Notes: generated by a model from the sequence alone, not told the origin. DNA of 64,000 bases from Candidatus Eiseniibacteriota bacterium (GCA_963762255.1 CAVXKA010000003.1:864001-928000); one strand, 5' to 3'. Positions 5,615 through 26,977 are shown, counted from the stretch's first letter. Made by a program: numbers and translations.

Positions 5615-7047
5615 GCCGGACGGCCTCGGTACTTCCTGAGCTTGTTGTGGAGCGTGCGGGTGCTGATGCCGAGGATCTCCGCGGCTCGCGTCTTGTTGTC
5701 GCTCGTCTTGCGTAGCGTCTCGAGAATGAGGAGCTTCTCCGCCTCCTCGACCGTGCTGCCGACGCTCACGACCACCGTGGCGGCGTGCGAGCCGTTCGAG
5801 GGAACCGCGGCGGGTGCGAGGGTGACGGTCGCGGGCTGCTCCGCGAGCGGCGAGCCCTCGGCACGCGCCGGCGGAGGGGGGCCCAGACTGGGCAGATCGC
5901 AGACGTCGATGAGGGACCCCGCGGCGACGACGACCGCCCGCTCCACCACATTGCGCAACTCGCGGACGTTGCCCGGCCACCGGTGGGCGCGCAGCGCATC
6001 CTGCGCCGCCGCCGTGAAGCCGTCGAAGGTCTTGCCGTTGGCGCAGGCGAACTCGTGCAGGAAGTGTTGAGCGAGGAGCGGCACGTCCTGCAGCCTCTCG
6101 CGCAGCGCCGGAAGCGCGATGGTGAAGACGTTGAGACGGTAGAAGAGGTCTTCGCGAAAGCGGCCGCTCTGGAGCGCCCGACCGATGTCGGCGTTGGTGG
6201 AGGAGATGACGCGAACGTCGACCGGGATCTCCTGCCGACCTCCGACGCGCCGGATGCTGCGCTCCTCGAGAACGCGCAGCAGCTTCGCCTGAAGTTCGGG
6301 GGGCATCTCCCCGATCTCGTCGAGGAGGAGCGTGCCGCCGGTGGCGAGTTCGAAGCACCCGGCCCGATCCGCGGTGGCCCCGGTGAAGGAACCCTTCTGG
6401 TGGCCGAGGATCTCGCTTTCCAGCAACGACTGCGGGATGGCCGCGCAGTTGACGGCAACGAAGGGCCTGTTGCGCCGCGGGCTCATCTCGTGAAGCGTTC
6501 GCGCCACGACTTCCTTGCCGGTACCGCTTTCCCCGGTGATGAGCACTGATACACGGCTCGGCGCGGCCTGCCCGACGAGCCGGTAGACGTCCTGCATGAT
6601 CGGCGTGCGGCCGACCAGGTGGCCGAACTTCCCGCGCTCGGCGAGATCGCGCGTGAGCCGCAGCAATTCCTCGCGATCGCTCACGCGCTCGACCGCCTTC
6701 TCGAGAACCACCTTGAGTCGGGCGAGGTCGACCGGCTTGGTGAGGTAGTCGTAGGCGCCTTCGCGCATCGCCTGAGTCGCGTTCTCGATCGTGCCGTGGC
6801 CGGTGAGAAGGATGAATACGGCGTGGGGGAGCTCCTCGCGAACTGCGCTCATCAGCTCGATGCCGGACGGGCCGGGCATCATCAGATCGGAGAGCACGAT
6901 GTGAGGGGAGAACTCCTTGCAGATCGCCAGCGCGTCCCGCGCATCCGATGCCGGACGGCTCTTGTATCCCCAGCCGGAGATGAGCTCGGTGAGTCCGGCG
7001 CGCGCGGCCTCTTCATCGTCAACGACGAGGACTCGATACGATGTCAT
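5611..7047 (-). CDS. Sigma-54-dependent response regulator (NtrC/AtoC/ZraR family: REC-AAA+-Fis HTH)
   Basis: VLVVDDE receiver, Walker [15 protein letters not shown] (GAFTGA variant), [39 protein letters not shown]. Confidence 0.95.
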
Positions 7048-7122
7048 GGGGTGATCGCCTCCGTGGGCCGGATCCTCGATAGGCTGCTTCACCGCAGACT
7101 CCGGGCCGACGGGTGGAGACAA

Positions 7123-7138
7123 TGCGAGGCCCGTGCCG
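7123..7138 (-). promoter_or_regulatory. Candidate sigma-54 (-24/-12) promoter for the regulator/kinase operon
   Basis: Minus strand reads CGGCACGGGCCTCGCA, i.e. GG-N10-GC with a GGCACG core, about 76 bp upstream of the ATG. Confidence 0.55.
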
Positions 7139-7168
7139 GAGACCGAAGAACCATGCTACCTCCCAAAT

Positions 7169-7181
7169 TTCAATGAGTTAC
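7169..7181 (+). promoter_or_regulatory. Candidate IHF site
   Basis: TTTCAATGAGTTA versus consensus WATCAANNNNTTR (1 mismatch), in an AT-rich patch about 30 bp upstream of the leftward sigma-54 site. Confidence 0.35.
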
Positions 7182-7369
7182 AGCAATCAAAGGCAAACCT
7201 GAAGCCAAGACTCCAGGGACAAATCGAATGAGTGCGCAAATTTTACACGGTTTCGGCCATTCGCGCACCCCGGGGATAGGGACTATTCTTCGCGCAGGTT
7301 TTTGCCGAGCCTGCCAAGGATGCAGAGTGGATTGATCAATTCGAGCCTACCGGGGGGGGTATGGCCGTC

Positions 7370-7382
7370 CAAACCGTTGAAA
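7370..7382 (-). promoter_or_regulatory. Candidate IHF site
   Basis: Minus strand TTTCAACGGTTTG versus WATCAANNNNTTR (1 mismatch), just upstream of the rightward sigma-54 site. Confidence 0.35.
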
Positions 7383-7399
7383 ACACGTGATGCGTGGGG

Positions 7400-7415
7400 T
7401 GGCACCGCTCTTGCT
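7400..7415 (+). promoter_or_regulatory. Sigma-54 (-24/-12) promoter for the cytochrome operon
   Basis: TGGCACCGCTCTTGCT is an exact match to TGGCAC-N5-TTGCW and lies next to a sigma-54 activator gene. Confidence 0.8.
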
Positions 7416-7420
7416 CTTAG

Positions 7421-7700
7421 ACGCGGGTGGAAGACCGAACCGGAATTCGCCTGGTTGGATCTCCGGGCTAGGTTTGGCCAATCGAAGGCGATTCGGGCTT
7501 CCGAGAAGCCAACCCACGTGAAGCACGGTGGGGGGCCGGGCGGAATTGCTCGAAGAGCACGATGTTCGGTACGCCGCCCGGTCCCCCATCCCCCCCTCCT
7601 CGGCGAGCCGACCGGCGTCAGCGGCAAGCTCTGGTTGAACCGGACCACCGCCATGGACGGAGCGGTGGCCTGGTCGACCACCCAAAATGATGAACTGCAC
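7421..7700 (+). ncRNA. Candidate structured 5' leader or sRNA of unknown class
   Basis: Stems 7443-7452/7486-7494, 7453-7458/7478-7483, 7496-7501/7505-7510, 7527-7543/7574-7590 (17 bp with two G-U pairs) and 7645-7651/7662-7668. Confidence 0.35.
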
Positions 7701-7890
7701 CTTCGGGGGGGTTTCGTCTGGCACGACTTCGGGCTCCTCGGGGTGTTTCCCCCCGCTCGTGTTCACCCAGAATCCGGCTGGCGGCCGGGGTGGGAACCCC
7801 GGACCGGTCAAGGGGGTTTCGCTCTCGACCGATATCGATTGCAGGATCACCCTCAACTGAAAGCCCTCGGCTCCTCGTCACGGCATAGGT

Positions 7891-8754
7891 GTGCGTTTGA
7901 AACGGACTCTGTCGATCATCTTTGTCCTACTTGCTGGGATCGCGATCGCCGGCGCGCCGTACTACACTCTCCCCATGTCCGGACGGGTCCGCAGTTCCTT
8001 TCACGAGTGGCTCCGTCCCTCGGGCTATGTCGGTCAGTCGCTCGGCATCATCGGCCTCGCGTGCTTTCTCTTCCTCTGGCTCTACCCGGTGCGCAAGCAC
8101 TTTCCTCAACTGGCGCGCACGGGCTCTATCGCGCGGTGGCTCCACGTCCACGTCATCGCCGGGCTCGCGACGCCGTTCTTGGTGGCGCTCCATGCGGGGT
8201 TCCGCTTCTCGGGGCTGGCCGGCCTCGCCTTTGCAGCGATGGTCGTGGTCTGGATGAGCGGCATCGTCGGGCGCTACCTCTACGCCCGCATCCCCCGCAG
8301 CCGGACCGGGCTGGCACTGAGCATCCAGGAGATCGGAACCCAGCGAGAGGATCTGATCCGGCGCATCGCCGCCGCCACAGGCCTCCATCCAGCCGATGTC
8401 CGTAAGGACCTCGCGGTGGAAGACGTCATGCACAAGGGGCTCGGGAAGCGTCAAACGCTCCGCCTCCAGATCACGGGCGATCTCGCCCGCCGTCGCGCCG
8501 TGCGCGACTTCCGCGCGAGGATCCTCGCGGGCACAGGAGGGGCGGTGAACATCGACGCGGGCGCGCTCGACGAGGCGCTTCGGTGCGCCCGGCGGGAGCT
8601 CGCCCTCGCCCAGCAACTCCGACTCCTGGAAGGGACCCAGCGCGTCTTCCGCTTCTGGCATGTCGCCCATCGCCCGGTAGCAGTGACCGCGCTCGTCGCC
8701 GTCGCCGTTCACGTCGGCGTCGTGATCGCCGTCGGCAGCACGTGGTTCAGGTAG
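7891..8754 (+). CDS. Inner-membrane protein, ferric-reductase/cytochrome-b-like (putative heme b)
   Basis: About 5 TM segments with His-containing motifs WLHVHVIAG, ALHAG, FRFWHVAHRP and VAVHV. Confidence 0.7.
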   Translation: MRLKRTLSIIFVLLAGIAIAGAPYYTLPMSGRVRSSFHEWLRPSGYVGQSLGIIGLACFLFLWLYPVRKHFPQLARTGSIARWLHVHVIAGLATPFLVALHAGFRFSGLAGLAFAAMVVVWMSGIVGRYLYARIPRSRTGLALSIQEIGTQREDLIRRIAAATGLHPADVRKDLAVEDVMHKGLGKRQTLRLQITGDLARRRAVRDFRARILAGTGGAVNIDAGALDEALRCARRELALAQQLRLLEGTQRVFRFWHVAHRPVAVTALVAVAVHVGVVIAVGSTWFR

Positions 8755-8758
8755 CACG

Positions 8759-10183
8759 ATGATCGCACTCGTAACCACTGTCGCCTTCTGCGCGGTGACC
8801 GGCACCTTGATGGCGATCCATCTGCGGCGCAGCGCCTGCCGCGACCAGGCCGCCCCTGCCGTTTCCTGTCCGCGGTGCCGGGCCGAGGTCCCGGAAGGCC
8901 AGGATCGGTGCCCTCGGTGCGGCGTCCCGCAACAGATCTACGAGGTCGTGAGCGCGCAGACGGTGGTTCTGGAGAACGAGCCCGAAAAGGTCGCCGGGGA
9001 GATCGCACACGCCGTCGTACGCGCCGACAAGTGCCTCGGTTGCGGCACCTGTGTGGCCGCATGCCCCGAGCCGGGCGCGATCACGCTCCAGGGGAAGCTG
9101 GCAGTCGTCAATACGGACATCTGCCTGGGTCACGGCACCTGCGCGCAGGCCTGCCCTATCGGCGCGATCTCGCTGGGTGCGGGCGCGGCGGTGCAGCGCG
9201 TCGAGGTGCCGGAAGTGGACGCGGATTTCCAGTCCAACGTGCCCGGTGTCTACATCGTGGGCGAGCTCGGAGGGCGCGGCCTCATCAAGAACGCGATCAA
9301 CGAGGGAAAGGTCGCCATCGAAGCGGTGATGCGCGAGACGCAGCTCGGCGCGCGCCGCGGCGCCGCGGACGACGTCTACGACGTCATCATCGTCGGCTCG
9401 GGACCCGCGGGGTTGAGCGCGGGTCTCGAAGCGCACCGCGCCGGCCTGCGCTACGTCATCCTGGAGCAGGGAACACCCGCCGACACGATTCGCAAGTACC
9501 CGCGGCACAAGCTCCTCCTCGCCGAACCGGTTTCCGTTCCGCTCTACGGAGATCTCTGGGTCGCAGACGCCTCGAAGGAGAGCCTCATCCAGGTGTGGGA
9601 GACGATCATCGCCAACACCGGGATCGCGATCCGCACCGATCACCGCGTCGAGGACGTCGTCCGCGACGGAGAGAACTTCAAGGTTCGCACCAGCAAGGGG
9701 GAGTACCAGGCGCGGCGGGTGGTGCTGGCGATCGGCCGGCGCGGCACCCCGCGCCGCCTAGGGGCGCCCGGCGAGGAGCTGGCCAAGGTCGTCTACGACA
9801 TCGTGGAAATGGACGCGTTCGCCGGCCGCAGAGTTCTGGTGGTAGGCGGAGGCGACAGCGCCGTGGAATCCGCCCTCGGGTTGTCCAACCAGAAGGGCAC
9901 GGTGGTGCACCTCGCCTACCGCGGCCGCGAATTCTCCCGAGTCAAGGAGCGCAATCGCGTCAAGCTCGACGAGGCCACGGCGGCGGGGCGCGTGACGCTG
10001 CTGCTGGACACGGACGTGCTGCGGATCCTCGACGAGGAGGTCGTGCTCAAGGTCGGTGGGCAGGAGACGAACCTCCCCAACGACAACGTCATCATTCGCA
10101 TCGGCGGAGAGCCCCCGTCCTCGTTCCTCGAGCGCGCCGGCGTGCGCGTGGTCCAGAAGGACGTACCCCTGGTGGCGGCATGA
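8759..10183 (+). CDS. Membrane-anchored 4Fe-4S dicluster / FAD-NAD(P)H oxidoreductase (TrxB/YpdA/FNR-like)
   Basis: N-terminal TM; CPRC...CPRC Zn ribbon; CLGCGTCVAACP and CLGHGTCAQACP; FAD motif VGSGPAGLSA; NAD(P)H motif VGGGDSA followed by YRGREFSR. Confidence 0.88.
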   Translation: MIALVTTVAFCAVTGTLMAIHLRRSACRDQAAPAVSCPRCRAEVPEGQDRCPRCGVPQQIYEVVSAQTVVLENEPEKVAGEIAHAVVRADKCLGCGTCVAACPEPGAITLQGKLAVVNTDICLGHGTCAQACPIGAISLGAGAAVQRVEVPEVDADFQSNVPGVYIVGELGGRGLIKNAINEGKVAIEAVMRETQLGARRGAADDVYDVIIVGSGPAGLSAGLEAHRAGLRYVILEQGTPADTIRKYPRHKLLLAEPVSVPLYGDLWVADASKESLIQVWETIIANTGIAIRTDHRVEDVVRDGENFKVRTSKGEYQARRVVLAIGRRGTPRRLGAPGEELAKVVYDIVEMDAFAGRRVLVVGGGDSAVESALGLSNQKGTVVHLAYRGREFSRVKERNRVKLDEATAAGRVTLLLDTDVLRILDEEVVLKVGGQETNLPNDNVIIRIGGEPPSSFLERAGVRVVQKDVPLVAA

Positions 10184-10202
10184 CCGGCGAAGGCTGCAGG
10201 GA

Positions 10203-12295
10203 ATGACCCGCCATGCGTCACGATGGCTGCGGGCGGTTCTGATGATGGGCGCGCTGCTGCTGCCGCGCGCCTCGTCCGCGCAGATCTCGCCCGGTGAGCT
10301 CTCGCGGGACCATCGCTCGCTCGAAGGTCCGCTCAACTGCCGCTCGTGCCACGCCGGCAAGACGAAGGAGATGGATCGCAACTGCCTCTCCTGTCACCAG
10401 GACATCCAGCGGCTGCGGGAGCAGAAGCGAGGATTTCACGCGCGAAACGGGGACGCACCGTGCGCGAGCTGCCATCCCGATCATGCAGGACGGGACTTCG
10501 AGCTGATCGCCTGGGACGGCGGCTCGTTCGAGAAGTTCGACCATGCGAAGGCCGGCTGGCCGCTGGCGGGCAAGCACGCCAAGGCCGCCTGCCGCGACTG
10601 CCACCAGCCCAAGCATCAGTCGGTCGAGTTCATGAAGCTCTCCAAGCGCGAGGATCCCGCCGAGAGCTGGGTCGGCCTCGAAACGGCCTGCGCCTCGTGC
10701 CACGAAGACACGCACCGAGGGGCGCTCGGCCCCGAGTGCGCCCGCTGCCACGGGAACGAAGCCTGGAAGCCCGCCACCGCCTTCGACCACGCCGCCACCG
10801 CCTTCGCGCTGACCGGCAAGCACACCGACGTGGAGTGCGCGAAGTGCCACTCGGCGGCCTCGCTCTCTCTCGCCCGCGACGACCAGGGCCGTCCGATCCC
10901 GCTGTACAAGCCGCTCCCCCACGCCGAGTGCGGCGCCTGTCACCGCGATCCGCACGAGAACCGGTTGGGCGCGGCGTGCGCTTCCTGCCACAAGACCTCC
11001 GGGTTCCGCGATCTCGCGTCCGGCCCGTTCAACCACAGCCTCACCCGCTTCGCGTTGCGCGGCGCGCACGCCTCGGTGGAATGCGCGAAATGCCATGACC
11101 CGGTGAAGGCGGGAGGCAAGCGGCCGGCTCACGATCGCTGCGACACCTGTCACCGCGATGCCCATGCGGGTCAGACCCTGCTCAAGGGCGCATCGTCCGA
11201 GCCCGTCGCTCCCGACTGCGCGGCGTGTCACGACGAGCGCGCGTTCCGGCCTTCGGTCTTCACGGTGGAGCGCCACGCCACCACCGCCTATCCGCTCGAC
11301 GGCAAGCACCGCGCGATCGAATGCCGCGCGTGCCACGCGAAGATCCCGGCAGGAGTCCCGAAGGACTCGCTCGGAACCGCCGGCGTGCTCATGAAACCCA
11401 AGTTCGCCGCGTGCCGCGACTGCCACCCGAGTCGCACGGAAAGCAGCTCGCGCGGCGCGCCGACGGGGGCGCGTGCGAGTCCTGCCATCGGGTCCAGGGG
11501 TGGAAGCCCAGCCTCTTCACCGTCGAGGACCACAGCCGCCTGAAGCTGGCGCTTCAGGGCCGCCACGCCGAGGCGGAGTGCGCCGCCTGTCACGGGCCGC
11601 GCCGCAAGGATCTGCCCGCGTTGCCCTCCGCGGAGGTGACCGGAAAGGCCGGCGTTCTCCTCGCCCTGGAGTCGGCGGAGTGTGTGAGCTGTCACGTGGA
11701 TCCGCATGCCGGAAGACTCACAGCATCCGGGAAGCCTGAGCCGGCCGTGTGCGCGTCATGCCACGGATCGGGAGGGTTCGCTCCGTCGACGCTCGACATG
11801 GTGCACCACGCCGCGCTGGGGTTCGCTCTTGAAGGGGCCCACGCGGCCGCCTCCTGCCTGGACTGCCATGCAGAACTTGCACGGCCTCGGCGCGCCTCCA
11901 CCCTCATTCTGGCCGCCATGAAGGAACCGCTGCTTCCGTTCGGCCAGAAGCGCACCGCGTGCGTCGACTGTCATGAGGACGTGCATGGCGGGCAGTTCAA
12001 GATGCGCGACGACGGCGGCGCCTGCGGCGGTTGCCACGGGCAGGAGAGCTTCAAGCCGGCCGTCCGGTTCGACCACGATCGCGGCACGGCCTTTGCTTTG
12101 CAGGGCGCCCATGCCTCGGTCGCTTGCGCGAAATGCCACATCGGCCGGGTGGACCCGGACGGCGTGAAGCGCATCGTGTATCGCCCCGTCCCACGGGATT
12201 GCGAGAGTTGCCACGGAGGGAAGCGCATGGAAGGGATGGGCGTGGAGACGCGGGCCGGCGCGCGGCCGGCACAGAGCCAGGAGGGGGAACGGTGA
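10203..12295 (+). CDS. Multiheme cytochrome c, 23 CxxCH (one frameshift near 11428)
   Basis: Signal peptide, then QISPGELSRDH. 14 CxxCH lie in the first frame and 9 in the second; the frames join as ...CRDCHP/ESHGKQL... Confidence 0.9.
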
Positions 12296-15200
12296 AGCCG
12301 ACCAGGACGTCGACTCATCACGCTGCTCCTGGCGGCGGCGTGCCTGCTTGGACGACCCGAGCAAGGGACCGGCGCTCCCGATCCCGACTACCCGCATGGG
12401 ACCTTTGAGGAGGACTGCACGACCTGCCACTCCCCCGAGGCATGGAAACCTGCGAGCTTCAGCAAGGATTTCGACCACGCCGCGTTCGGAATCCCCCTGG
12501 AGGGCGCGCACGCTCAGACCACCTGTCTGAACTGCCATCGCACGCTCGAGTTCGCGGACACCGGGACGCGCTGCGGCGGACTGCCACCAGGACATTCACC
12601 AGAGTGAGATGGGGCCGGAGTGCGCCGACTGCCACACCACGCGCAGTTTCGGCGATCGCGAGCGCATCGAGGCGCGCCACCAGGTCACCCGGTTTCCTCT
12701 GACCGGCGCCCACAGCACGCTGGATTGCGAGAGTTGTCACGGAGGGTCGGGGCAGGGGCACCTGATCTTCGTCGGCACGGCCTCGGAGTGCGCCTCCTGC
12801 CATACGAACAACTACCAGGCTACCCAGCAGCCTCCGCACGCGCTGAACGCGTTCTCCACGGAATGCACCCTCTGCCATGGAACGTCGCAATGGGATGGCG
12901 CCGTGCTGTCCGCCTCCGGGTTGCACTCCTTCGATCACGGGAAGGGCGGGTTCCCGCTGAACGGTGCCCATGCCCGGCAAGAGTGCATGAGTTGCCACGG
13001 AGACGGGACATTCGCCGGCAAGAGCATCGAGTGCGCGTCCTGCCACCAGGCCGACTACGACGGCACGACCGACCCGAACCATGCCACGGCCGGATTCGGG
13101 CTGGAATGCGCGAGCTGCCACGGGATGGAGCAGTGGAGGGGGGCAGCCTTCGATCACAATAGAACCGACTTCGCGCTCACCGGCTCCCACGTTGAACAAG
13201 AGTGTCGATCCTGCCACGGCGGCGGGGTCTACAACGGCTTGAGCACGCAGTGCGCGTCATGCCATCAGGCCGACTACGACGATACGGACGACCCGGACCA
13301 CGCGGCCGCCGGGTATCCCTTGGAGTGCGCAAACTGCCACAACACCGGAGACTGGGAGGAGGCCGAGTTCGATCATAACAAGACCCAGTTCGCGTTGACC
13401 GGGTCGCACGTGGAGCAGGAATGCCGCTCGTGCCACGGCGGCGGGGTCTACAACGGCTTGAGCACGCAGTGCGCGTCATGCCATCAGGCCGACTACGACG
13501 GCACGACCGACCCGAATCATGCCCTGGCCGGGTTCGGGGTGGAATGCGCCACATGCCACGGAACGACGCAGTGGAATGGCGTTGTCTTCGATCACACCCA
13601 GACCCAGTTCGCCCTGACCGGCTCGCACATCGAGCAGGAGTGCCGCTCCTGCCACGGCGGCGGGGTCTACAACGGCTTGAGCATGCAGTGCGCGTCATGC
13701 CACCAGGCCGACTATGACGGCACGGACGACCCGAACCACGCTCTTGCCGGGTATCCGCTGGCGTGCGAGACCTGCCACAACACCGGAGACTGGGAGGAGG
13801 CCGACTTCGATCACAACCAGACCCAGTTCGCGTTGACCGGATCGCACGTGGAGCAGGAGTGCCGCTCCTGCCACGGCGGCGGAGTTTACGACGGGCTGAG
13901 TATGGAGTGCGCCTCCTGCCATCAGGCCGATTACGACGATACGGACGACCCGAACCACGCTCTGACCGGGTTCGCTCTGGAATGCGCGACCTGCCACGGG
14001 ACGACACAGTGGGATGGAGCAACCTTCGATCACAATCAGACCGACTTCGCACTGACCGGGGCGCACGTGGGCCGGGAGTGCGCGAGCTGCCACGGTGGTG
14101 GGGTCTACGACGGACTGAGCATGGAGTGCGCCTCCTGCCATCAGGCCGACTACAGCGCCACGACGGATCCAAACCATGCTGCCGCGGGATATCCGTTGGA
14201 CTGCAAGAGCTGTCACGGGACTGCACAGTGGGACGGCGCGACCTTCGATCACAACCGGACCCAGTTCCCCCTGACCGGTTCGCACATCGAGCGGGAGTGC
14301 CGCTCGTGTCACGGCGGTGGGGTCTACGACGGGTTGGCTACCCAGTGCGCATCCTGCCATCAAGCCAACTACAACAGCACCACCGACCCCGCTCACGCGG
14401 CAGCCGGTTTCGCGCTTCAGTGCGAGACTTGCCACAACACGACGCAGTGGGACGGGGCGACTTTCGATCATACCCAGACCCAGTTCGCGTTGACCGGGTC
14501 GCACATCGAGCAGGAGTGCCGCTCATGTCATGGCGGCGGGGTCTACAACGGACTGAGCATGGAGTGCGCCTCCTGCCACCAATCGGATTACGACGGCACC
14601 ACCGACCCGAACCACGCAGCCGCCGGGTATCCCCTGGAGTGCGAGACCTGTCACGGGACGGCACGGTGGGACGGAGCCGACTTCGATCACAGCCAGACCC
14701 AGTTCGCGCTGACCGGCTCGCACATCGAGCAGGAGTGCGCGAGTTGTCACGGCGGCGGGGTCTACAACGGGCTGAGCATGGAGTGCGCTTCGTGCCACCA
14801 ATCAGATTTCAGCGCGACTACCGACCCCAATCACGCGGCGGCCGGCTTCGCGCTTCAGTGCGAGACCTGTCACAACACGACGCAGTGGGACGGGGCGACC
14901 TTCGATCACAACCAGACCCAGTTCGCGCTGACCGGCTCGCACATCGAGCAGGAGTGCCGCTCATGTCATGACGGCGGGGTCTACAACGGGCTGAGCATGG
15001 AGTGCGCCTCCTGCCACCAGCCCGACTACGACACGACCACCGACCCGAACCACGCCGCTGCGGGGTATCCGTTGGACTGCCAGACCTGCCACGGAACGGC
15101 ACAGTGGGACGGAGCCGACTTCGATCACGCCCAGACCCTCTTCCCGCTAACTGGATCGCATATCGAACAGGAATGCCGCTCATGTCACGGCGGCGGCGTC

Positions 15201-18200
15201 TACGACGGGTTAGCTACCGAGTGCGCCTCCTGCCACCAGCCCGACTACGACGGAACGACCGATCCCAACCACGCGGCGGCCGGCTTCGCGACTTCAGTGC
15301 GAGACCTGCCATAACACGGCACAGTGGGACGGGGCGACCTTCGATCACAGCCAGACCCAGTTCGCACTGACCGGGTCGCACATCGAACAGGAGTGCCGCT
15401 CGTGTCACGGCGGCGGCGTCTACGACGGGTTAGCTACCGAGTGCGCCTCCTGCCACCAGCCCGACTACGACGGAACGACCGATCCCAACCACGCGGCGGC
15501 CGGCTTCGCGCTTACAGTGCGAGACCTGCCATAACACGACACAGTGGGACGGGGCGACCTTCGATCACAGCCAGACCCAGTTCGCACTGACCGGGTCGCA
15601 CATCGAACAGGAGTGCCGCTCGTGCCACGGCGGCGGCGTCTACGACGGGTTGGCTACCGAGTGCGCCTCCTGCCACCAGCCCGACTACGACGGAACGACC
15701 GATCCCAACCACGCGACCGCTGGTTACTCCACCCTGTGCGAGACGTGCCACGGCACGATGAAGTGGGAAGGCGCAGTATTCAATCACAGCCGCACGGACT
15801 TCCCGCTGACCGGGGCGCACGTCGAGCAGGAATGCCTGAGCTGCCACACCGATGGCGTCTACGACGGCCGAGCACGCAATGCGCCTCGTGCCACCGAGCC
15901 GAACTACAACGGGACGACGGATCCGGATCATGCGGCGGCCGGCTTCCCGACGAACTGCCAGACCTGCCACAACACGACGCAGTGGGAAGGGGCCACCTTC
16001 AACCACTCCAGACACAGCTTCCCGCTGACGGGATGCACACGTTCGCCAGAGTGCGACGCCTGCCACGGCGGCGGGGTCTTCGACGGCGAACCACGGAGTG
16101 CTTCTCCTGCCACCAGGCCGACTTCAACGGGACGACGAATCCCAATCACGTCAGCGCCGGCTTCCCCACGATTGCGCAGACGTGCCACACCACCAGCGGT
16201 GGCCGGGGGCCACCTTCAACCACTCAGACGATCTTCCCGCTGACCGGGGCCCACACCAGCGCGGACTGCAGCAGCTGCCACACCGGCGGGCGTCTACCAG
16301 GGGACCTCACACGCTGTGCTATTCCTGCCACCAGGCCGACTACAACGGGACCACGAATCCCAATCACGTCAGCGCCGGGTTCCCCCACGACTGCAGCACC
16401 TGTCACACCACGACAGCGGCTGGCCGGGAGCCACCTTCAACCACTCAGATCGCTTCCCGCTGACCGGCGGCTCACATCAGCGTCGGACTGCAGCACCTGC
16501 CACAGCGGCGGCGTCTACCAGGGACTGACCACCCTGTGCTATGCCTGCCACCAGGCCGACTACAACGGGACCACAAATCCCAATCACGCGCAGCGCCGGG
16601 TTCCCCGACCTGCAGCACCTGTCACAACACGAGCGTGGGCGGGAGCCGACTTCAACACAACCAGACTCGCTTCCCGCTGACCGGCGGCCACACGGCGTCA
16701 GGAGTGCCGCAACTGCCACGCCGGCGGTGTCTACCAGGGCATGACCACCGCTGTGCTACTCCTGCCACCAGGCCGACTACAACGGGACGACGAATCCCAA
16801 TCACGCGCAGGCCGGCTTCCCCATGAGTGCCAGACCTGCCACACCACCACGGCTGGGCCGGAGCGACCTTCAATCACTCCAGAGCGATCTTCCCGCTGAC
16901 CGGCGCCCACACGAACGTGGAGTGCAGCACTTGCCACGCCGGCGGCGTCTACAAGGGACTCGCACCCTGTGCTACTCCTGCCACCAGGCCGACTACAACG
17001 GGACAACGATCCCAATCACGCAGCGCCGGGTTTCTCACGATTGCGAGACCTGCCACACCATCAACGGCTGGCCGGGGGCCACCTTCAGCCATCGGACAGC
17101 TTCCCGATGACCGGGGCACACACGGCGTGCGAGCTGCACGAACTGCCACGCCGGCGGCGTCTACAGGGACTCGCACCCTCTGCTACTCCTGCCACCAGGG
17201 CGACTACAACGGGACCACGAATCCCAACCACGCCAACGCCGGTTTCTCACCGACTGCAGCACGTGCCACACCTCCACGGCTGGCCCGGAGCCACCTTCAA
17301 TCACCACGAGCTTCCCGCTGACCGGGGGCACAGCAACGTGGAGTGCAGCACCTGCCACGCCGGCGGCGTCTACAAGGGACTCGCACCCTGTGCTACTCCT
17401 GCCACCAGGCCGACTACAGCGGCACCACGAATCCCAACCACGCCCAGGCCGGCTTCTCGCCTGCAGTGCAGACCTGCCACACCACAACGGCTGGCCGGGA
17501 GCCACCTTCAACCACTCACAGACGAGCTTCCCGCTGACCGGCGCCCACATCGACAGGAGTGCCTGCCTCCTGCCACGGCGGCGGGGTGTACAACGGACCT
17601 CCACCGAGTGCTACTCCTGCCACCAGGCCGACTACGACGGGACCACCGACCCCAATCACGCCCGCCGGCTTCCCGGCTGACTGTGCCAGACGTGTCACAA
17701 CACCACGACCTGGCTTGGCGCCGTCTTCGATCACAACCAGTCGCAGTTTCCCCTCACCGGGGCCCATCTGGCCGTGGAATGCATGAGCTGCCACGGCGGC
17801 GGGGTCTACAACGGGTTGAGCACGCAATGCGCCTCCTGCCACCAGTCGGACTACAACGGCACGACGGATCCCAATCACGCCGCCGGCCGGGTTCTCGCTC
17901 CCAATGCCAGACCTGCCACACCACGACCGCCTGGCCGGGCGCGACATTCAACCACAGCCAGACGAGCTTCCCGCTTACGGGGTCGCACGTTCAGCAAGAG
18001 TGCCTGAGCTGTCACGGCGGCGGGGTCTACAACGGGTTGAGCACGCAATGCGCCTCCTGCCATCAGTCGGACTACAACGGCACGACGGACCCCAACCATA
18101 CCGCCGCCGGATTCCCGCTCCAGTGCCAGACCTGCCACAACACCACAACCTGGCAGGGGGCCACGTTCGATCACGATTCGCAGAACTTCCCGATCTATTC

Positions 18201-18397
18201 CGGCAGGCACCGCGACAAGTGGGATGTGTGCACCGACTGCCACACGAACGCGACCAACTACTCGGTCTTCTCCTGTCTGGGCTGCCACCCGCACTCCGAC
18301 AAGTGGGAAGACCGACTCGGATCACCGGGGCGAGTCGGGCTACAGGTACGACAGCGCGGCCTGCTACAACTGTCATCCTCGGGGTCAGGGGGGCTGA
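12292..18397 (+). CDS. Giant repeat-built multiheme cytochrome c, ~2030 aa, ~82 CxxCH (many frameshifts)
   Basis: GTG overlaps the upstream stop and follows GAGGGGG. 36 CxxCH are in the intact ORF 12609-15314; the same module continues across shifting frames to CYNCHPRGQGG-TGA at 18397. Confidence 0.85.
13149..18165 (+). repeat. Intragenic tandem repeat, 23 units of ~219 bp (73 aa, three hemes each)
   Basis: Unit F(D/N)HxxTxFxLTGxHxxxECxxCHxGGVYxGLxxxCxSCHQxDYxGTTxPNHxxAGF/YxxxCxTCHxTxxWxGAx. Units start at 13149, 13368 and so on; 5017 bp / 219 is about 23. Confidence 0.95.
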
Positions 18398-20014
18398 TGT
18401 TCGAGTTCATCCGCGGCGCGATCCTCCTCCTGGCCGCGCTGCTCGGCCTCTCCACCGTCGCGGGGGGCAGGAGGCACCGATCTCTCCCGCCGGCGCCGAC
18501 TTCCGTGGCCCATGTCACTTACATCACCGGGGGGCTCGTCTACCTGGACGCCGGCCGCGAGGACGGACTCGAAGTGGGCCGGGAACTGAGCGTGGAGCGC
18601 GAGGGTGCGGTCATCGCGACGATTCGGGTCGAGCACGTCGCCTCCCATCGCGCGTCGTGCTCGATCGTCGGTACCGGCGAGGCGCCTCGCGAGGGCGACG
18701 TGGTCCGTTACGCCCCGCGACCGGGAACGGAGTCGGGCGATTCGACCGCCTCGTCGGCCCCGATCCAGGTCGGGACGGGTCGTGACGGCCGGACTCTTCG
18801 CCAGCTCGGCCTGCGGGGACGGGTCGGCATCCGGTATCTCACCGCGCTAGATCAGACCGATTTCGGGGCCGACTTCACGCAGCCGTCGCTCGATCTTCTC
18901 CTCACGGGAACCGCGGTCGCCGGCAGCCCCTTCAGCTTCGCGCTCGACACCCGCGCGCGCCGCACCTACCGCACGCACGCGGACGGATCGCACACGGATG
19001 ACGGACGGACGCGGGTCTACCGGCTGAACGCGTCGCACCAGGCGACCGGATCCCCGCTGCGGATCTCGCTGGGACGCCAGGTGTCACCGGATCTCGCCTC
19101 GGTGAGCCTCTTCGACGGCGCGCTCGCCGAGTACGGACGCGCGACCACGGCCTGGGGGCTCTTCGGCGGGGCCACCAGCCCGATCCGGAGTCGTACGGCG
19201 TTAGCTCGCACGTCCTGGAGTACGGGACCTACGCCCGCGTGCAGAGCCCGCAGGGGCACTCGCTCAGGTGGTCGGCCACCGGGGGCGGGATTCGCTCGCT
19301 CGTGGACGGTGTACGCGATCGCGATTACGTCTTCTTGCGCGGGCAGCTCATGGACTCGCGCGTGTACGGATACGTGAGCCAGGAGATCGACGTCGACGAG
19401 TGGCGCGCCTCGGAGGGCGACCGGCGGCTCTTCTCGCCCACCAGCACGTACGCCGGCTTTCGGTGGCAGGCGGTGGAGTGGCTGAGCCTCAATGCCGGTT
19501 TCGACAACCGGAGGAGCGTGCGCCTCTATCAGGACCCGAGACCCCGGAGCACCGAATTCGACTACAGCTTCCGGCGAGGTCTGCGCGGAGGAGCGACGCT
19601 GCGACTCCAGGCAATCGCTTCACGCTGGGGACCAGCGCGCAGACCAACCGGGGCGGTTCGGGCGGCTCCTCCGACTCGTACACGATCACCTCACGGGCCG
19701 CCCGCGTGTCCCCTCTCTCGATCGACCTGGCCAGCCGGCACACGCGCTTCACGGGTCCGCTCACCGAGGGCTGGCTGCATTCCGCGAGCGCTGCCGCGCC
19801 GATCGGTCCTCGTCGCCGCGTGGAATTCGAAGGCGGCCGGCGTCAGGAAACCCGTTCGTTCGGTCCGGCCACATCCGTCGCCACGACGTGGTACGGGGTG
19901 AACGCCGACGTGGGATTGTGGTCGGGCTGGTACTTCCTGCTCTCGGTGACGTCCACGCGCGGCGACACCGAGAAGAACGATCAGATCTACTCGAGCCTCT
20001 CCTACCGCTTCTGA
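18397..20014 (+). CDS. Probable outer-membrane beta-barrel protein with small N-terminal beta domain (frameshifts near 19180-19210 and 19540-19620)
   Basis: ATG overlaps the cytochrome stop (TGATG); signal peptide; alternating amphipathic strands (TYAGFRWQ, LSLNAGFD, WYGVNADVGL, WYFLLSVT); ends YSSLSYRF with a terminal Phe. Confidence 0.72.
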
Positions 20015-20334: not shown

Positions 20335-21551
<1,217 letters not shown>

Positions 21552-21555
<4 letters not shown>

Positions 21556-22286
21556 GTGGGCATCCCCGCGGCGGCCGTGTCGGTCCGCGACACGACCGGC
21601 CGGTCGTCGACCACGAGACCGTCGCTCAGCACGATGATCCGCTTCGCAAACTGCGCGATGTCCTGCTCGTGGGTGATGAGGAGGATCGTCATCCCCGCGC
21701 GGTTCAGTTCCTGCAAGACGCGCATCACCTCGAACGAGGTCGTGGTGTCGAGGTTCCCGGTCGGCTCGTCGGCCAGCAGCAACGGCGGCTCGTTGACCAG
21801 CGCGCGGGCGATGGCCACGCGCTGCTGCTGCCCGCCGGAGAGCTGGTTGGGAGCGTGGTGCGAGCGATCGGCGAGGCCCACCCGATCGAGCGCCTGATGG
21901 GCACGTTGCGCGATGGACCTTCCGCGGACGGACGAGTAGATCATCGGCAGCTCGACGTTCTCCAGCGCGCTGGTGCGGGCCAGCAGGTTGAAGCTCTGAA
22001 AGACGAACCCGATCTTCCGATTCCGGATCTCGGCCAGTTCGTCCCGCGAGAGGTGCGAGACGTCCTCGCCGTCCAGTTCGTAGATCCCTGACGTCGGACG
22101 GTCGAGGCAGCCGAGGATGTTCATGAGGGTGGACTTCCCGCTCCCCGACGACCCCATGACCGCGACCATCTCGCCCGGATCGACGTCGATCGACACGCCC
22201 CGCAGCGCCTGCACCTGGTTGTCGCCCTCGCCGTAGGTCTTGACCAGATCGCGGGCCCGCAGAACCCGTCGGTCAGCGCCGTGCAC
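21552..22286 (-). CDS. ABC transporter ATP-binding protein (MacB/LolD-like)
   Basis: GSSGSGKST, LSGGQQQRVAIARAL, LLADEPTGNLD. Confidence 0.95.
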
Positions 22287-23472
22287 GGGTCATGCCTCCG
22301 GGGGCGAACGGATTGACCTGACCCTGGGCCGCGCCCGCAGCCGACCCGTTGGTCGCGGCGATCACGACCTGCATTCCCTCTCGGAGCGAATCGGCGGCGA
22401 CGGCGGTGAAGGTCCCGTCGCTCAAACCGGGGGTCACGCGAACCCGGTGGAGCTTCCCGTTCTCGGCGAGGACGAAGACCGCGGGACCACCTCGCGCGCC
22501 GGCCGGCCGCTGTCCGTCCGCCGCGGCGCCCGGCGCTCGCACGGCCCCCGGCTTCGCCGCCGGCCGGAAGCGCAGCGCCGCCGACGGCACCCTCAGCACG
22601 CCGCGTGCCTCGTTCACGAGGAAGGTGGCGTTGGCGGTCATGCCGGGGAGCAGCAACTGATCGGGGTTCTCGACGAGGACGATCACCGTGTAGGACACCA
22701 CGTTCTGCACGGTCTGCGGGGCGAGGCGGATCTGGTGCACGACGCCGCTGAAGGTTCGCTCGGGGAACGCGTCGACGGTGAAGCTGACCTTCTGGTCGAC
22801 CTGGATCATGCCGATGTCGGCCTCGTCCACCGACGCCTCGAGCTGCATGCGGGTGAGGTCGTTGGCGATGGTGAAGAGGGTCGGCGCGGACAGCGAGGCG
22901 GCCACCGTCTGACCGACGTCGACGTTGCGCGAGATGACGATGCCGTCGATGGGAGAGGCGATGGTGGCGTAGTGCAGGTTCGTGCGCGCGCGATCGAGCG
23001 CGGCTTCCGCGGACTTCTGCGAGGCCTGGGCCGCCTCGAGCGCGGTTTGGGCCGCGTCGATTTCGGCCTGCGAAGCCAGACCCTGATCGCGCATGGGAGC
23101 TACCCGCGCGTAGTCCCGCTCCGCCTGGCGCACCGTCACCTTGGCTCGCTCCAGGTCGGCCTCGTTCTGCGACTCCTGCGCCTTCAGAAACGTCGGATCG
23201 AGCTGGGCGAGGACCTGGTTCTTGTGGACCCGGTCGTTGAAGTCGGCGTAGAGCGCGGCAGATGGTGCCGCTGACCTGGCTTCCGACCTGCACGGTGGTC
23301 ACCGCGTTCAGGGTTCCGGTGGCCGACACCTGAACGATCACGTCGCCACGCTGCACCGCCTCGGTGCGGTAGGGAGATTCCGGCTTCTGCTCCCGCCGCA
23401 GCGTCCACGCCACGACTGCGGCCCCCAGGACCACCACGACCGCCGCCAGGATGCCCCAGTCCTCTTGCGCAT
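22273..23472 (-). CDS. MacA-like periplasmic adaptor (membrane fusion protein), frameshifted
   Basis: ATGTLNAVTTVQVGSQVSG, SPIDGIVISRNVDVGQTVAASLSAPTLF, LLPGMTA. Confidence 0.9.
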
Positions 23473-26119: not shown

Positions 26120-26302
26120 GGCTGAGTTCATTCCAATCCCGGGCACGTAGAGAAGGCCCGGACCAATTACATCATCCCAAGCCCGATAGGGTGCCCATTC
26201 TACGCCCGGCCGCCCCATTCCGCTAGAATCTCCTGCATCCTCCCGGCCCTCGGAAGCGTCTCCTCCCCGAAGGCCGGAACGGCCGACACCTCCGGAGGGT
26301 GC

Positions 26303-26977
26303 ATGAAGGACCTGGACGCGGAACGGCGCTGGCAGCTGCTTGTTAGCCTGCTGGAGCCGATTCACGAGAGAGCTTCGGGCGCGGCGCGCAACCTGTGCCG
26401 GTCCCCCGGCGACGGGGACGACCTCTATCAGGAAGCCGTGCTGCGCGCCTACCACAAGCTCCACACCCTTCGCGAGGAGTCTCGTTTCCGGTCCTGGTTC
26501 TTCGCCGTTCTCCTTTCCGTCCATCGGTCCCGATCGCGCCGCGCGTTCTGGAAGCGGTTCCTGCCGCTCGAGGACACGCCCGACGACGAGCGGAACCTGG
26601 TCGGCGAGGACGGTCGGACGAACGAGGAGGAGTTTCTTTCGGCTCGTCGGGCCGCGCGCGCGCTGTCGCGGCTTCCCGCCGAGCAACGGGAGGCGCTGGT
26701 GCTGCACGATCTGGAGGGATTCTCGATGGAGGAGATCGCCGCCATGCAAGGCGCGTCGATCGCCGCGGTCAAGTCCCGCGTCCTTCGGGGGCGGGAACGG
26801 CTGCGCCGCCACTATCGATCCCTCGGGTTCGTGCGAACCGAACCTCTCTCGCGGGCGATCTCGGAGGCCACGCATCGCCGGTTGCAGCGAACCGGGGTGC
26901 GCCCCGCCGAGGCCCTCGCGTCCGTCTGCTCCTCTCTCGCGGACACCAATCCCCGTACAGGAGGGCGTCATGAGTGA
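26303..26977 (+). CDS. ECF RNA polymerase sigma factor
   Basis: Region 2 DDLYQEAVLRAY...FRSWF; region 4 LPAEQREALVLHDLEGFSMEEIA...VKSRVLRGR. Confidence 0.9.
   Translation: MKDLDAERRWQLLVSLLEPIHERASGAARNLCRSPGDGDDLYQEAVLRAYHKLHTLREESRFRSWFFAVLLSVHRSRSRRAFWKRFLPLEDTPDDERNLVGEDGRTNEEEFLSARRAARALSRLPAEQREALVLHDLEGFSMEEIAAMQGASIAAVKSRVLRGRERLRRHYRSLGFVRTEPLSRAISEATHRRLQRTGVRPAEALASVCSSLADTNPRTGGRHE

Follow-up and report, generated by a model that had tools for sequence, protein, structure and literature searches.

A PCC3-type porin-cytochrome gene cluster and its accompanying ferredoxin-flavoprotein in a Candidatus Eiseniibacteriota genome

How might a bacterium exchange electrons between its cytoplasm and its surroundings through the five adjacent genes described here? 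The genes span positions 7891-20014 on the + strand of the 64,000-nucleotide stretch that we analyzed (the window), and the initial annotation had presented them as a self-contained chain from NAD(P)H to the outside with about 105 c-type hemes, about 82 of them in one cytochrome. We found that the set probably connects the inside of the cell with its surroundings via about a hundred hemes. It is not a new system: it is of a type already in print, the porin-cytochrome c gene cluster PCC3, in which the accompanying NAD(P)H-type flavoprotein has been overlooked.

Gene content of the cluster

The order of the genes is inner-membrane protein (IMP, g1), flavoprotein (g2), 23-heme cytochrome (g3), giant cytochrome (g4) and barrel (g5):

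7891..8754, + strand: g1, PCC3 "IMP"-type inner-membrane protein, putative di-heme cytochrome b, 287 aa, GTG start
8759..10183, + strand: g2, membrane-anchored ferredoxin-flavoprotein, 474 aa
10203..12295, + strand: g3, presumed periplasmic c-type cytochrome with 23 hemes and a signal peptide; one frame break
12292..18397, + strand: g4, giant c-type cytochrome of repetitive sequence, ~2030 aa on read-through, 78 CxxCH, at least 22 frame breaks
13022..18174, + strand: 219-bp tandem array within g4, 73-aa unit with 3 hemes, 23.6 copies
18397..20014, + strand: g5, outer-membrane beta-barrel protein, ~540 aa if read through; two frame breaks

The junctions are tight, with gaps of 4 nt between the g1 stop (8754) and the g2 start (8759) and of 19 nt between the g2 stop (10183) and the g3 start (10203), followed by overlapping stop and start codons of g3 and g4 (GTGA, 12292-12295) and of g4 and g5 (TGATG, 18395-18399). 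The annotated order, common orientation and spacing of 20 bp or less were thus recovered, but in this assembly none of g3, g4 and g5 is one continuous open frame. Counting canonical CxxCH motifs and leaving out variant ones, we found 101 in the cluster (23 in g3 and 78 in g4), which bears out the 23-heme cytochrome and replaces the earlier figures of about 105 and 82.

The membrane protein g1 is His-rich, as annotated, with 10 His and five hydrophobic segments (Kyte-Doolittle). It carries a WX3HX13H motif in helix 3 (residues 83-101, W83-H87-H101) and another in helix 5 (residues 256-274, W256-H260-H274), and the SGXXG motif in helix 4 reads SGIVG (123-127, S123-G124-x-x-G127). Both WX3HX13H motifs and SGXXG are invariant in 28 sequences, as are the individual residues H87, H101, H257, H260, H274, S123, G124 and G127; the members of the His pairs H87/H101 and H260/H274 stand 14 residues apart. 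An AF2 model (pLDDT 86.4) places helices at 2-20, 46-70, 80-101, 108-132 and 246-281. No Pfam-A family, PF01794 included, was matched at E <= 0.01 (hmmscan), nor any NCBIfam model, and Foldseek returned zero matches to the model at E <= 0.001. The structural neighbors found by VIA all had Z scores too low to tell a helical-bundle match from chance: CybB (5oc0, Z 7.8, rmsd 3.7 over 134 residues), a designed two-heme bundle (7ah0, Z 7.5), FdnI (1kqg_C, Z 6.7), STEAP4 and STEAP1 (Z 6.5 only) and HyaC (4gd3, Z 6.1). Those of low rmsd include di-heme membrane cytochromes b, and the two His pairs ~13 residues apart on two transmembrane helices resemble the heme feature of PF01794, so that g1 can be described as a putative di-heme cytochrome b. 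Its 136-residue loop contains 26 K+R, a charge distribution that would place both this loop and the body of g2 on the cytoplasmic side.

The annotated membrane-anchored Fe-S flavoprotein was likewise recognizable in g2, in which a helix at the N-terminus is combined with two CPRC pairs, two Fe-S motifs and an FAD/NAD(P)H domain of the TrxR fold. The last of these matches PF13738 (Pyr_redox_3; 151.7 bits, cut-off 30) and PF07992 (Pyr_redox_2; 96.2 bits, cut-off 26.1), and Fer4 families match residues 85-138. The motifs are CLGCGTCVAACP at 92, CLGHGTCAQACP at 122 and GSGPAG at 213. Across 18 sequences GSGPAG, GGGDSA, both Fe-S motifs and a helix-then-HLR(K/R) start are kept, with G213/G215/G218 and the GGGDSA residues (363-368, G363-G364-G365-D366-S367-A368) invariant. 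Among solved chains, g2 comes nearest to YpdA/Bdr, TrxR and TrxR-type FNR proteins (for TrxR-type FNR and YpdA/Bdr 2zbw, 3ab1, 3lzw, 7a76 and 7a7b, E 3.6e-29 to 1e-8). Since g2 has no Cys past residue 132 and no redox-active CxxC, it is not a disulfide reductase. Assignment to YpdA (bacillithiol disulfide reductase) was rejected, the TIGR04018 score of 162.4 bits lying well under the equivalog cut-off of 339.9 and speaking against orthology; so was thioredoxin reductase (TIGR01292, 84.2 bits against a cut-off of 343.45, and no redox-active Cys pair).

The first cytochrome, g3, matches Cytochrome_C7 and c3 families and is presumed periplasmic from its signal peptide. Its CxxCH motifs fall into two frames (14 in frame 3 and 9 in frame 2) with a break between 11412 and 11474, and the two pieces are collinear with an intact 707-aa homologue from a related locus, L016. 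Of 61 related loci among the matches listed, 37 have a corresponding cytochrome with 23 hemes and 19 have one with 20. The giant cytochrome, g4, runs from a GTG start overlapping the g3 stop to a C-terminus in frame 2 (...CYNCHPRGQGG, then stop), its longest intact piece (12609-15314) encoding 901 aa with 36 CxxCH. Tandem Repeats Finder resolved its 219-bp array at 76% matches and 4% indels, with a sub-array at 15885-17982 of period 218 and 8% indels. Homologues intact in a single frame hold 61 (L016) and 85 (L021) CxxCH, and the giant cytochromes of relatives range from 10 to 85 hemes. We infer an extracellular location for g4. Membership of the MtrA/DmsE decaheme family was rejected (intact block 45.4 bits, TIGR03508 cut-off 192.2), and a PF22113 MtrC-domain match (69.9 bits) sits on the repeated CxxCH units and is no sign of orthology.

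Finally, g5 ends in ...SLSYRF, consistent with the secreted beta-strand protein ending in Phe of the initial annotation. A tblastn search with the intact homologues of L016 and L017 aligned it as three collinear pieces in frames 1, 3 and 2, interrupted near 19149-19173 and again near 19577-19604. For the L016 homologue, the AF2 model (pLDDT 80.7) shows a signal helix, then a small beta domain at the N-terminus, and ~22 strands; Foldseek returned 297 PDB matches to it at E <= 0.001, those listed being barrel-forming outer-membrane or cell-envelope proteins, and the best structural matches by VIA are 22-strand TonB-dependent transporter barrels (Z 19.7). By the predicted fold of its intact homologue, g5 is an outer-membrane beta-barrel, as had been anticipated for the last gene.

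Recurrence of the gene set and pairing of g1 with g2

The five genes co-occur widely in other genomes. Among the matches listed, the complete set recurs in 42 of 45 related loci with at least 9 kb of downstream sequence, and all five parts are present in 6/6 loci from relatives of this genome, one of which (L021) has g2 moved behind g5. This recurrence is beyond chance. The pairing of the two inner components was followed in the best 80 loci, where a g2 homologue lies near g1 in 76 (in tandem in 45, divergent in 28 and downstream of the barrel in 3); in the other 4, contig ends cut the side where g2 would be. One protein of 736 aa, P0242, which stands for a cluster of 4 sequences, looks like a natural g2-g1 fusion: its residues 55-438 correspond to g2 (42% identical, E 2e-93) and its residues 469-734 to g1 (hhalign probability 99.3%). 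Its source is one 4.4-kb contig. The other long hit, P0241, was rejected as a read-through artefact.

These 80 loci are all close to the query, and the nearest named ones are labelled Candidatus Eisenbacteria, Gemmatimonadota, Krumholzibacteriota, Latescibacteria and Acidobacteriota, which makes the proposed uncultured FCB-related lineage plausible. For cytochrome c maturation, the genome has three PF01578 genes, two of them ~11-13 kb beyond the window end.

Entry and direction of electrons, and the broken frames

Our preferred reading, which we hold with about as much confidence as doubt, is a PCC3-type envelope-spanning conduit with a NOX-like two-part NAD(P)H dehydrogenase at its entry and outward flow that bypasses quinones. 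Anchored at the cytoplasmic face by its single N-terminal helix, g2 would take electrons from NAD(P)H to FAD and on to two Fe-S clusters, and g1 would move them across the membrane on two b-type hemes with bis-His ligation (by H87/H260 towards the cytoplasm and by H101/H274 towards the periplasm). The 23-heme g3 would span the periplasm, the g5 barrel would be the passage of the heme chain through the outer membrane, and the 78-heme repetitive g4 would prolong that chain outside. Flow would most likely be outward, regenerating NAD(P)+, with Fe(III), Mn(IV), humics or other cells as acceptors and a host that may otherwise be an aerobic heterotroph. By itself, sending electrons outward from NAD(P)H conserves no energy, since it dissipates the membrane potential. 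The cytoplasmic NAD(P)H feed of the initial annotation gains from the g2 motifs, the adjacency of g1 and g2 and their apparent fusion, while cofactor use and contact between the proteins are steps that we infer.

Alternatively, g1 might pass electrons to and from the quinone pool and g2 be an accessory, such as a second input, a reductase that repairs or poises the b hemes, or a redox sensor; we regard this as possible but rather doubtful. Three of the structural neighbors of g1, namely FdnI, HyaC and CybB, are di-heme proteins that react with quinones. The published PCC3 model also proposes a quinone-active cytochrome b for the IMP, exchanging with the quinone pool (He et al. 2017, PMC5566968), and the PCC3 descriptions drawn on here, in excerpt, give four genes and no flavoprotein. 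Against this, the presence of g2 with g1 in nearly all of the best 80 loci, in three arrangements and one fused form, is a tighter coupling than expected of an accessory, and since a quinone-site motif is undefined for the g1 family, this alternative has no positive sequence evidence here either.

An inward conduit, with Fe(II) minerals, reduced humics, a partner cell or a cathode as its electron source and delivery through g1 and g2 to NAD(P)+ for biosynthesis, is unlikely. TrxR-type FNRs do operate in both directions. PCC3 was first put forward as an Fe(II)-oxidation or uptake route (PMC5566968), and Mtr/Mto-type conduits are discussed as reversible in the Gallionellaceae survey (PMC10734462, in excerpt). 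However, reducing NAD(P)+ (-320 mV) with donors that lie near 0 mV, and doing so against an inside-negative membrane potential, would be doubly uphill, both PCC3 clusters of Sideroxydans ES-1 were down-regulated on Fe(II) according to the available excerpt (PMC8788666), and four heme-copper oxidase family genes point to an ordinary aerobic chain in the genome.

Frame breaks of one or two bases number at least 25 within 9.8 kb of the cluster (1 in g3, at least 22 in g4 and 2 in g5). Of these, 22 show as a change of frame from one CxxCH motif to the next (1 in g3, 21 in g4), and an extra g4 break lies near 12320, in the signal-peptide region. Their number, the location of most of them outside homopolymer runs of at least 4 bases, and the absence of a g1 match from the same-genus genome G001 (75% complete) and from 4 of 7 same-family genomes, which marks the trait as dispensable, would suit a decaying pseudogene array with real breaks and no conduit made, but this is very improbable, because neutral decay would add many substitutions and in-frame stops, whereas all 101 CxxCH are kept, at a density (1 per 77 nt in the broken part) close to that of the intact part (1 per 75 nt) and with spacing across the breaks that departs from the canonical 48, 75 or 96 nt by only 1-2 nt. 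Moreover, at all five breaks covered by short-read contigs (from relatives 90-99% identical, three runs), the length differences are sized to restore frame. Short-read cover is sparse or absent over about 3 kb of g4 (15.4-19.0 kb), so most g4 breaks are called errors by their spacing alone. The genes g1 and g2 are intact. A nearby FtsX-type permease (20335-21555, - strand) also appears split in pieces, which points to a general assembly problem. Overall, the breaks look like assembly errors and not decay, and we therefore take the system as intact in the organism.

Comparison with known systems

The MtrCAB conduit of Shewanella oneidensis and the MtoAB/PioAB systems follow the same logic, in which one multiheme cytochrome faces the periplasm, a barrel in the outer membrane forms a sheath and another multiheme cytochrome lies outside. 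In Mtr the cytochromes are two decahemes, the barrel has 26 strands and CymA supplies electrons from quinol; here, the cytochromes have 23 and 78 hemes and the barrel ~22 strands. With the NOX and FRE enzymes the preferred reading would have in common a chain from NAD(P)H via flavin and two stacked bis-His b hemes across the membrane to an outside acceptor. NOX and FRE are single polypeptides with six helices and a C-terminal ferredoxin-NADP-reductase-type domain, in contrast to the separate TrxR-fold dehydrogenase, two Fe-S clusters and five-helix membrane part predicted here. The likeness of the two HX13H pairs on helices 3 and 5 to NOX/FRE was noted by He et al. (PMC5566968). The flavoprotein itself shares its two-Rossmann FAD/NAD(P)H fold with TrxR-type FNRs and YpdA/Bdr and, like the former, is without a redox-active CxxC; unlike both, it has in front a membrane helix at the N-terminus, a CPRC pair resembling a zinc ribbon and a 2x[Fe-S] ferredoxin domain. 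No experimentally characterised system of other function matched the cluster.

The closest counterpart is PCC3, which He, Barco, Emerson & Roden (2017, PMC5566968) predicted from genomes and which is exemplified by Slit_0867-0870 of Sideroxydans lithotrophicus ES-1; it was described as functionally unverified in 2025 (PMC12442390). In the excerpts drawn on here, it consists of an outer-membrane barrel, a periplasmic cytochrome of ~21 hemes (median 21; 21-27 in the Gallionellaceae survey, PMC10734462), a giant repetitive cytochrome whose heme number varies and whose repeats are of low complexity, and a five-helix IMP of ~300 aa in which helix 4 carries SGXXG and helices 3 and 5 each carry WX3HX13H (PMC5566968). 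At the level of parts and motifs, the cluster shows every PCC3 defining feature that was tested: g5 is the barrel, g3 has 23 hemes, g4 with its 78 hemes and 219-bp repeats corresponds to the very large second cytochrome (up to 85 hemes), and g1 at 287 aa has the same helices and motifs. Of the self-contained chain of the initial annotation, what stands is a conserved five-part set, though one with g3, g4 and g5 broken in this assembly and of a published type. Both the published clusters and this one are known by sequence prediction. They differ in gene order (here IMP, flavoprotein, 23-heme cytochrome, giant cytochrome, barrel), in lineage (Proteobacteria against an FCB-group or Gemmatimonadota-like bacterium) and in the barrel (up to 42 predicted transmembrane regions against ~22 strands). 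Above all, the excerpted descriptions of PCC3 give four genes without a ferredoxin-flavoprotein, whereas here g2 accompanies the IMP and would imply a cytoplasmic, quinone-independent feed in place of the published exchange with the quinone pool.

Gene content and interrupted reading frames

Five co-oriented genes occupy positions 7891-20014 of the window (67% G+C), which belongs to a source genome of 4.14 Mb in three contigs (93.6% complete).

Genes of the cluster, in window coordinates
7891-20014, forward strand: whole cluster, g1 to g5
7891-8754, forward strand: g1, inner-membrane protein, 287 aa, single open frame
8759-10183, forward strand: g2, membrane-anchored ferredoxin-flavoprotein, 474 aa, single open frame
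10203-12295, forward strand: g3, 23-heme cytochrome, one frame jump
12292-18397, forward strand: g4, giant cytochrome, many frame jumps
18397-20014, forward strand: g5, outer-membrane barrel, two frame jumps

The tight junctions and overlapping stop and start codons reported in the initial annotation were recovered, with gaps of 4 nt (g1/g2) and 19 nt (g2/g3) followed by overlaps at GTGA (g3/g4) and TGATG (g4/g5). That annotation had also counted about 105 hemes; the 23 of g3 were found again, but the total comes to 101 canonical CxxCH motifs, of which g4 holds 78. The description as a whole holds for the five genes and their junctions, but an unbroken reading frame is found only in g1 and in g2.

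We traced the frame jumps with a third-position G+C plot and by mapping CxxCH motifs in each of the three frames. One break was located in g3 (between 11412 and 11474), 21 in g4 between successive heme motifs, with a further one near 12320 in its signal-peptide region, and two in g5, to which intact homologues aligned by tblastn as three collinear pieces, in frames 1, 3 and 2. The longest unbroken stretch of g4 (12609-15314, 901 aa) carries 36 CxxCH motifs, and the gene is built from 23.6 copies of a 219-bp unit encoding 73 aa and three hemes. Mutational decay of the cluster is disfavored as the cause of the breaks because it would also destroy motifs and add in-frame stops; heme-motif density is equal in the broken half of g4 (40 in 3081 nt) and the intact half (36 in 2706 nt). 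Assembly errors are the most likely explanation. Heme motifs in the intact half are 48, 75 or 96 nt apart, and distances across the breaks are 46-50, 74-77 and 94-97 nt, that is, the canonical values plus or minus 1-2 nt; three distances fall outside these classes (two of 88-89 nt and one of 218 nt). Furthermore, five of the breaks are covered by short-read contigs from three metagenome runs (shares 0.05-0.06) with 90-99% identity to the window, and the length differences of these contigs restore the frame in all five. Relative to the window, they have one letter fewer at 12320 and another at 12575, net two fewer over 19155-19487, net two fewer over 19571-19691 (in all three runs) and, in a contig spanning 11323-12279, one more across the g3 break. 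The region from 15.4 to 19.0 kb has mostly little or zero short-read cover, so at most g4 breaks the evidence for error is the motif spacing. The runs listed are DNA runs, with no RNA run among them. Nearby, an FtsX-type permease (20335-21555, reverse strand), adjoining an ABC ATPase (21555-22289) and an HlyD-type adaptor (22276-23298), also seems split into three overlapping frames, which points to a general indel problem of the assembly not confined to cytochrome genes. In this genome the assembly of g4 is unreliable, and gene calls on it will come out fragmented.

Both cytochromes match cytochrome c7/c3-type families and begin with signal peptides, and the intact block of g4 had no phmmer match among PDB sequences. 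We considered g4 as a lipoprotein on account of LAAAC at its N-terminus in the window, yet the homologues compared have no Cys there and the idea was dropped. For g5, we modelled the intact homologue from L016, a locus of a relative (32 sequences, pLDDT 80.7). The model comprises a signal helix, a small beta domain, a disordered linker and about 22 strands, and its best structural matches are 22-strand TonB-dependent transporter barrels (Z 19.7, rmsd 4.5 over 334-361 residues). Five of the 120 barrel homologues listed (P0174, P0180, P0190, P0196 and P0238, about 650-660 aa) carry PF16538 (FlgT_C) besides the barrel, which gives some versions an extra periplasmic domain.

The membrane protein and its flavoprotein partner

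The g1 product has five hydrophobic helices, of which helices 3 and 5 each carry a WX3HX13H motif and helix 4 carries SGXXG. Invariant residues are His 87, 101, 257, 260 and 274 together with W83, W256, S123, G124 and G127. From the charge distribution we infer a cytoplasmic location for the N-terminus and for the loop of 136 residues that joins helices 4 and 5. H87 and H260 would sit near the cytoplasm and H101 and H274 near the periplasm, the layout expected of two stacked bis-His b hemes. The structure model is confident (pLDDT 86.4) but had no Foldseek matches in the PDB at E <= 0.001. A wide VIA structure search gave a best Z of 7.8, in the usual range for unrelated helical bundles; its list at Z 6-8 includes di-heme cytochromes b (CybB, FdnI, HyaC), STEAP proteins and a designed two-heme bundle. 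The di-heme matches lie within helical-bundle noise and offer only a hint.

The g2 product starts with one helix followed by basic residues, and then carries, in order, two CPRC pairs, a classical CxxCxxCxxxCP motif and a second, variant motif, CLGHGTCAQACP (residues 122-133; 9122-9157), in which a conserved His replaces the second Cys (CxxHxxCxxxCP). At least 95% of 73 sequences, and 18/18 in a second alignment, retain this His, which suggests a His-ligated 4Fe-4S or 3Fe-4S cluster. The remainder is a thioredoxin-reductase-fold domain whose glycine motifs for FAD and NAD(P)H are invariant. As no Cys occurs beyond residue 132, a role of g2 as a disulfide reductase is ruled out. With YpdA/Bdr, thioredoxin reductases and TrxR-type ferredoxin-NADP reductases as its closest solved relatives, g2 appears from its sequence to be, in effect, a membrane-tied ferredoxin fused to an FNR-like enzyme.

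The association of g1 with g2 persists through three gene arrangements. In addition, a search for long g1 forms returned two proteins, P0241 and P0242. P0241 was rejected as a fusion, since it reads through a frameshifted contig and the stretches between and behind its two parts look out of frame. P0242 (736 aa), found on one 4.4-kb contig and belonging to a cluster of four sequences, has a g2-like N-terminal part (42% identical, E 2e-93) without CPRC pairs and a g1-like C-terminal part (hhalign probability 99.3% over 260 columns). In this protein the flavoprotein and the five-helix His-motif membrane protein appear to be naturally fused, and its predicted topology fits, with the cytoplasmic end of the g2 part running into helix 1 of the g1 part. 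Based on the three arrangements and this fusion, we read g1 and g2 as one module. Complex prediction for the pair, from 18-row alignments each, gave scores of 0.17 and 0.15 where the mark is 0.32, and we weigh these neither for nor against binding.

Conservation and genomic surroundings

More than 1400 relatives of g1 were found in the protein collection, none with a Pfam domain, and wherever a source names one the name is "hypothetical protein". Among 590 candidate stretches in species-representative genomes, at least 541 contain a g1 relative. Record titles of the best 80 of these loci name Gemmatimonadota, Candidatus Eisenbacteria, Krumholzibacteriota, Latescibacteria, Acidobacteriota and a few others. 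Of these 80 loci, 76 carry a g2 homologue, directly behind g1 in 45, divergent ahead of g1 in 28 and behind the barrel gene in 3; in the remaining four, the contig ends within 450 nt on the side where g2 is expected. Also among the best 80, 42 of the 45 loci that continue for 9 kb or more downstream combine g2, the cytochromes and a g5 homologue; the first cytochrome carries 23 CxxCH motifs in 37/61 loci and 20 in 19/61; and the motifs per locus range from 20 to 98 (median 39). Closer to the source genome, all five parts were found in 6/6 20-kb regions from relatives. For example, L016 has an intact g4 with 61 hemes, and L021, where the order is g1-g3-g4-g5-g2, one with 85. The trait is nevertheless patchy, since g1 is matched in 15/41 genomes of the class (3/7 in the same family) and no match was found in the same-genus genome (75% complete).

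Genes upstream of the cluster differ in L016 and in L017, another locus from a relative. These varying flanks indicate that the five genes form a conserved module and that the upstream regulator pair lies outside it. In the window this pair, divergently oriented, consists of an NtrC-type sigma-54 activator (receiver, Sigma54_activat and HTH_8; 5614-7155, reverse strand) and a sensor kinase (sCache/HAMP/PAS/HisKA; 3770-about 5600, reverse strand), and it is kept beside the cluster in neither L016 nor L017. An exact sigma-54 -24/-12 consensus, TGGCACCGCTCTTGC, lies at 7400-7414 (forward strand), about 477 nt upstream of g1 and pointing toward it; it is the only such match in the 64-kb window, and with up to two mismatches the window has 44 matches, no more than chance. 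Rfam returned four matches in the 5' leader (7100-7950) at E 0.14-0.65, all far under gathering scores and taken as chance, and a terminator scan 3' of g5 found a single site, on the reverse strand only. A B12-binding radical SAM protein with DUF4070 (872-aa frame, 24650-27265, reverse strand) is encoded a few kb downstream, with no evident link to the cluster.

Proposed electron path and relation to PCC3

Beyond the anatomy and the g1-g2 association, we infer, as the likeliest mechanism, a path in which electrons would pass from NAD(P)H to FAD and the two Fe-S clusters of g2, from there to a heme b on the cytoplasmic side and a heme b on the periplasmic side of g1, and then to the 23-heme g3 and, through or along the g5 barrel, to the 78-heme g4. 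Outward flow would be thermodynamically easy because NAD(P)H stands at -320 mV and the electrons head to the positive side of the membrane. This step conserves no energy and would therefore serve redox balancing. Four genes of the heme-copper oxidase family are encoded in the source genome, along with cytochrome c maturation genes of the Ccm type, and ResB had no match there; this gene content fits an aerobe with an auxiliary electron outlet. About 11-13 kb past the window end, at G000:C3:939190-941313 in the source genome, lie two genes for cytochrome c assembly (PF01578) that have frames of 858 and 278 aa and look like CcmF and CcmC; contig C2 holds a third PF01578 copy.

This type of cluster has already been published as a prediction. 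PCC3, a porin-cytochrome cluster type predicted from genomes, is defined in the description by He et al. 2017 (PMC5566968) by a porin, a periplasmic cytochrome (median 21 hemes), a repeat-built extracellular cytochrome (median 34, up to 85 hemes) and an inner-membrane protein of about 300 aa and five helices, in which helix 4 bears SGXXG and helices 3 and 5 bear WX3HX13H. The window cluster has all of these features, as compared with the description of proteobacterial examples. The same account likens the membrane protein to the ferric-reductase/NOX domain and models electron exchange with the quinone pool. In their passages on the subject, PMC10734462 and PMC12442390 again list PCC3 as four genes, the latter terming it functionally unverified, and PMC8788666 describes both PCC3 clusters of Sideroxydans ES-1 as down-regulated on Fe(II). 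Nor are giant heme numbers new, since cytochromes with more than 100 heme motifs have been reported (PMC11495043). The PCC3 descriptions in PMC5566968, PMC10734462, PMC12442390 and PMC8788666 make no mention of a flavoprotein, and our full-text literature search found no paper combining PCC3, cytochrome and flavoprotein. FAD, NAD, oxidoreductase and two Pfam numbers are absent from the supplementary text of PMC5566968, a text that does not include Supplementary Figure 4 (domain architectures of PCC4 redox genes), which may be relevant to whether PCC4 was already drawn with a comparable flavoprotein. Relative to these descriptions, the additions are the conserved flavoprotein partner and the lineage. 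Overall, the NAD(P)H-fed conduit of the initial annotation is borne out in its anatomy and in the g1-g2 association; the remainder is the path proposed here.

PCC3 clusters have among the largest heme counts known, and the labels of the MAGs that hold the related loci name several phyla. Should the flavoprotein prove to be where electrons enter, the published model would change: the electron source would be NAD(P)H and not quinol, the direction would likely be outward, and the function would likely be redox balancing in supposed plain aerobes, not lithotrophic Fe(II) oxidation. Extracellular electron transfer would then extend to abundant, mostly uncultured soil phyla, and the question could be put to a direct test with two small, expressible proteins, g1 and g2. 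We tentatively propose, as a serious possibility somewhat short of the probable, that PCC3 conduits are a widespread bacterial counterpart of NADPH oxidase, in which a split NAD(P)H:Fe-S:di-heme-b dehydrogenase injects cytoplasmic reducing power directly into a cable of up to about 100 hemes reaching past the outer membrane. Such conduits would not be quinone-linked Fe(II) oxidases and would give aerobic soil heterotrophs (Gemmatimonadota, Eisenbacteria, Acidobacteriota) a quinone-independent electron overflow valve to minerals, humics or neighboring cells.
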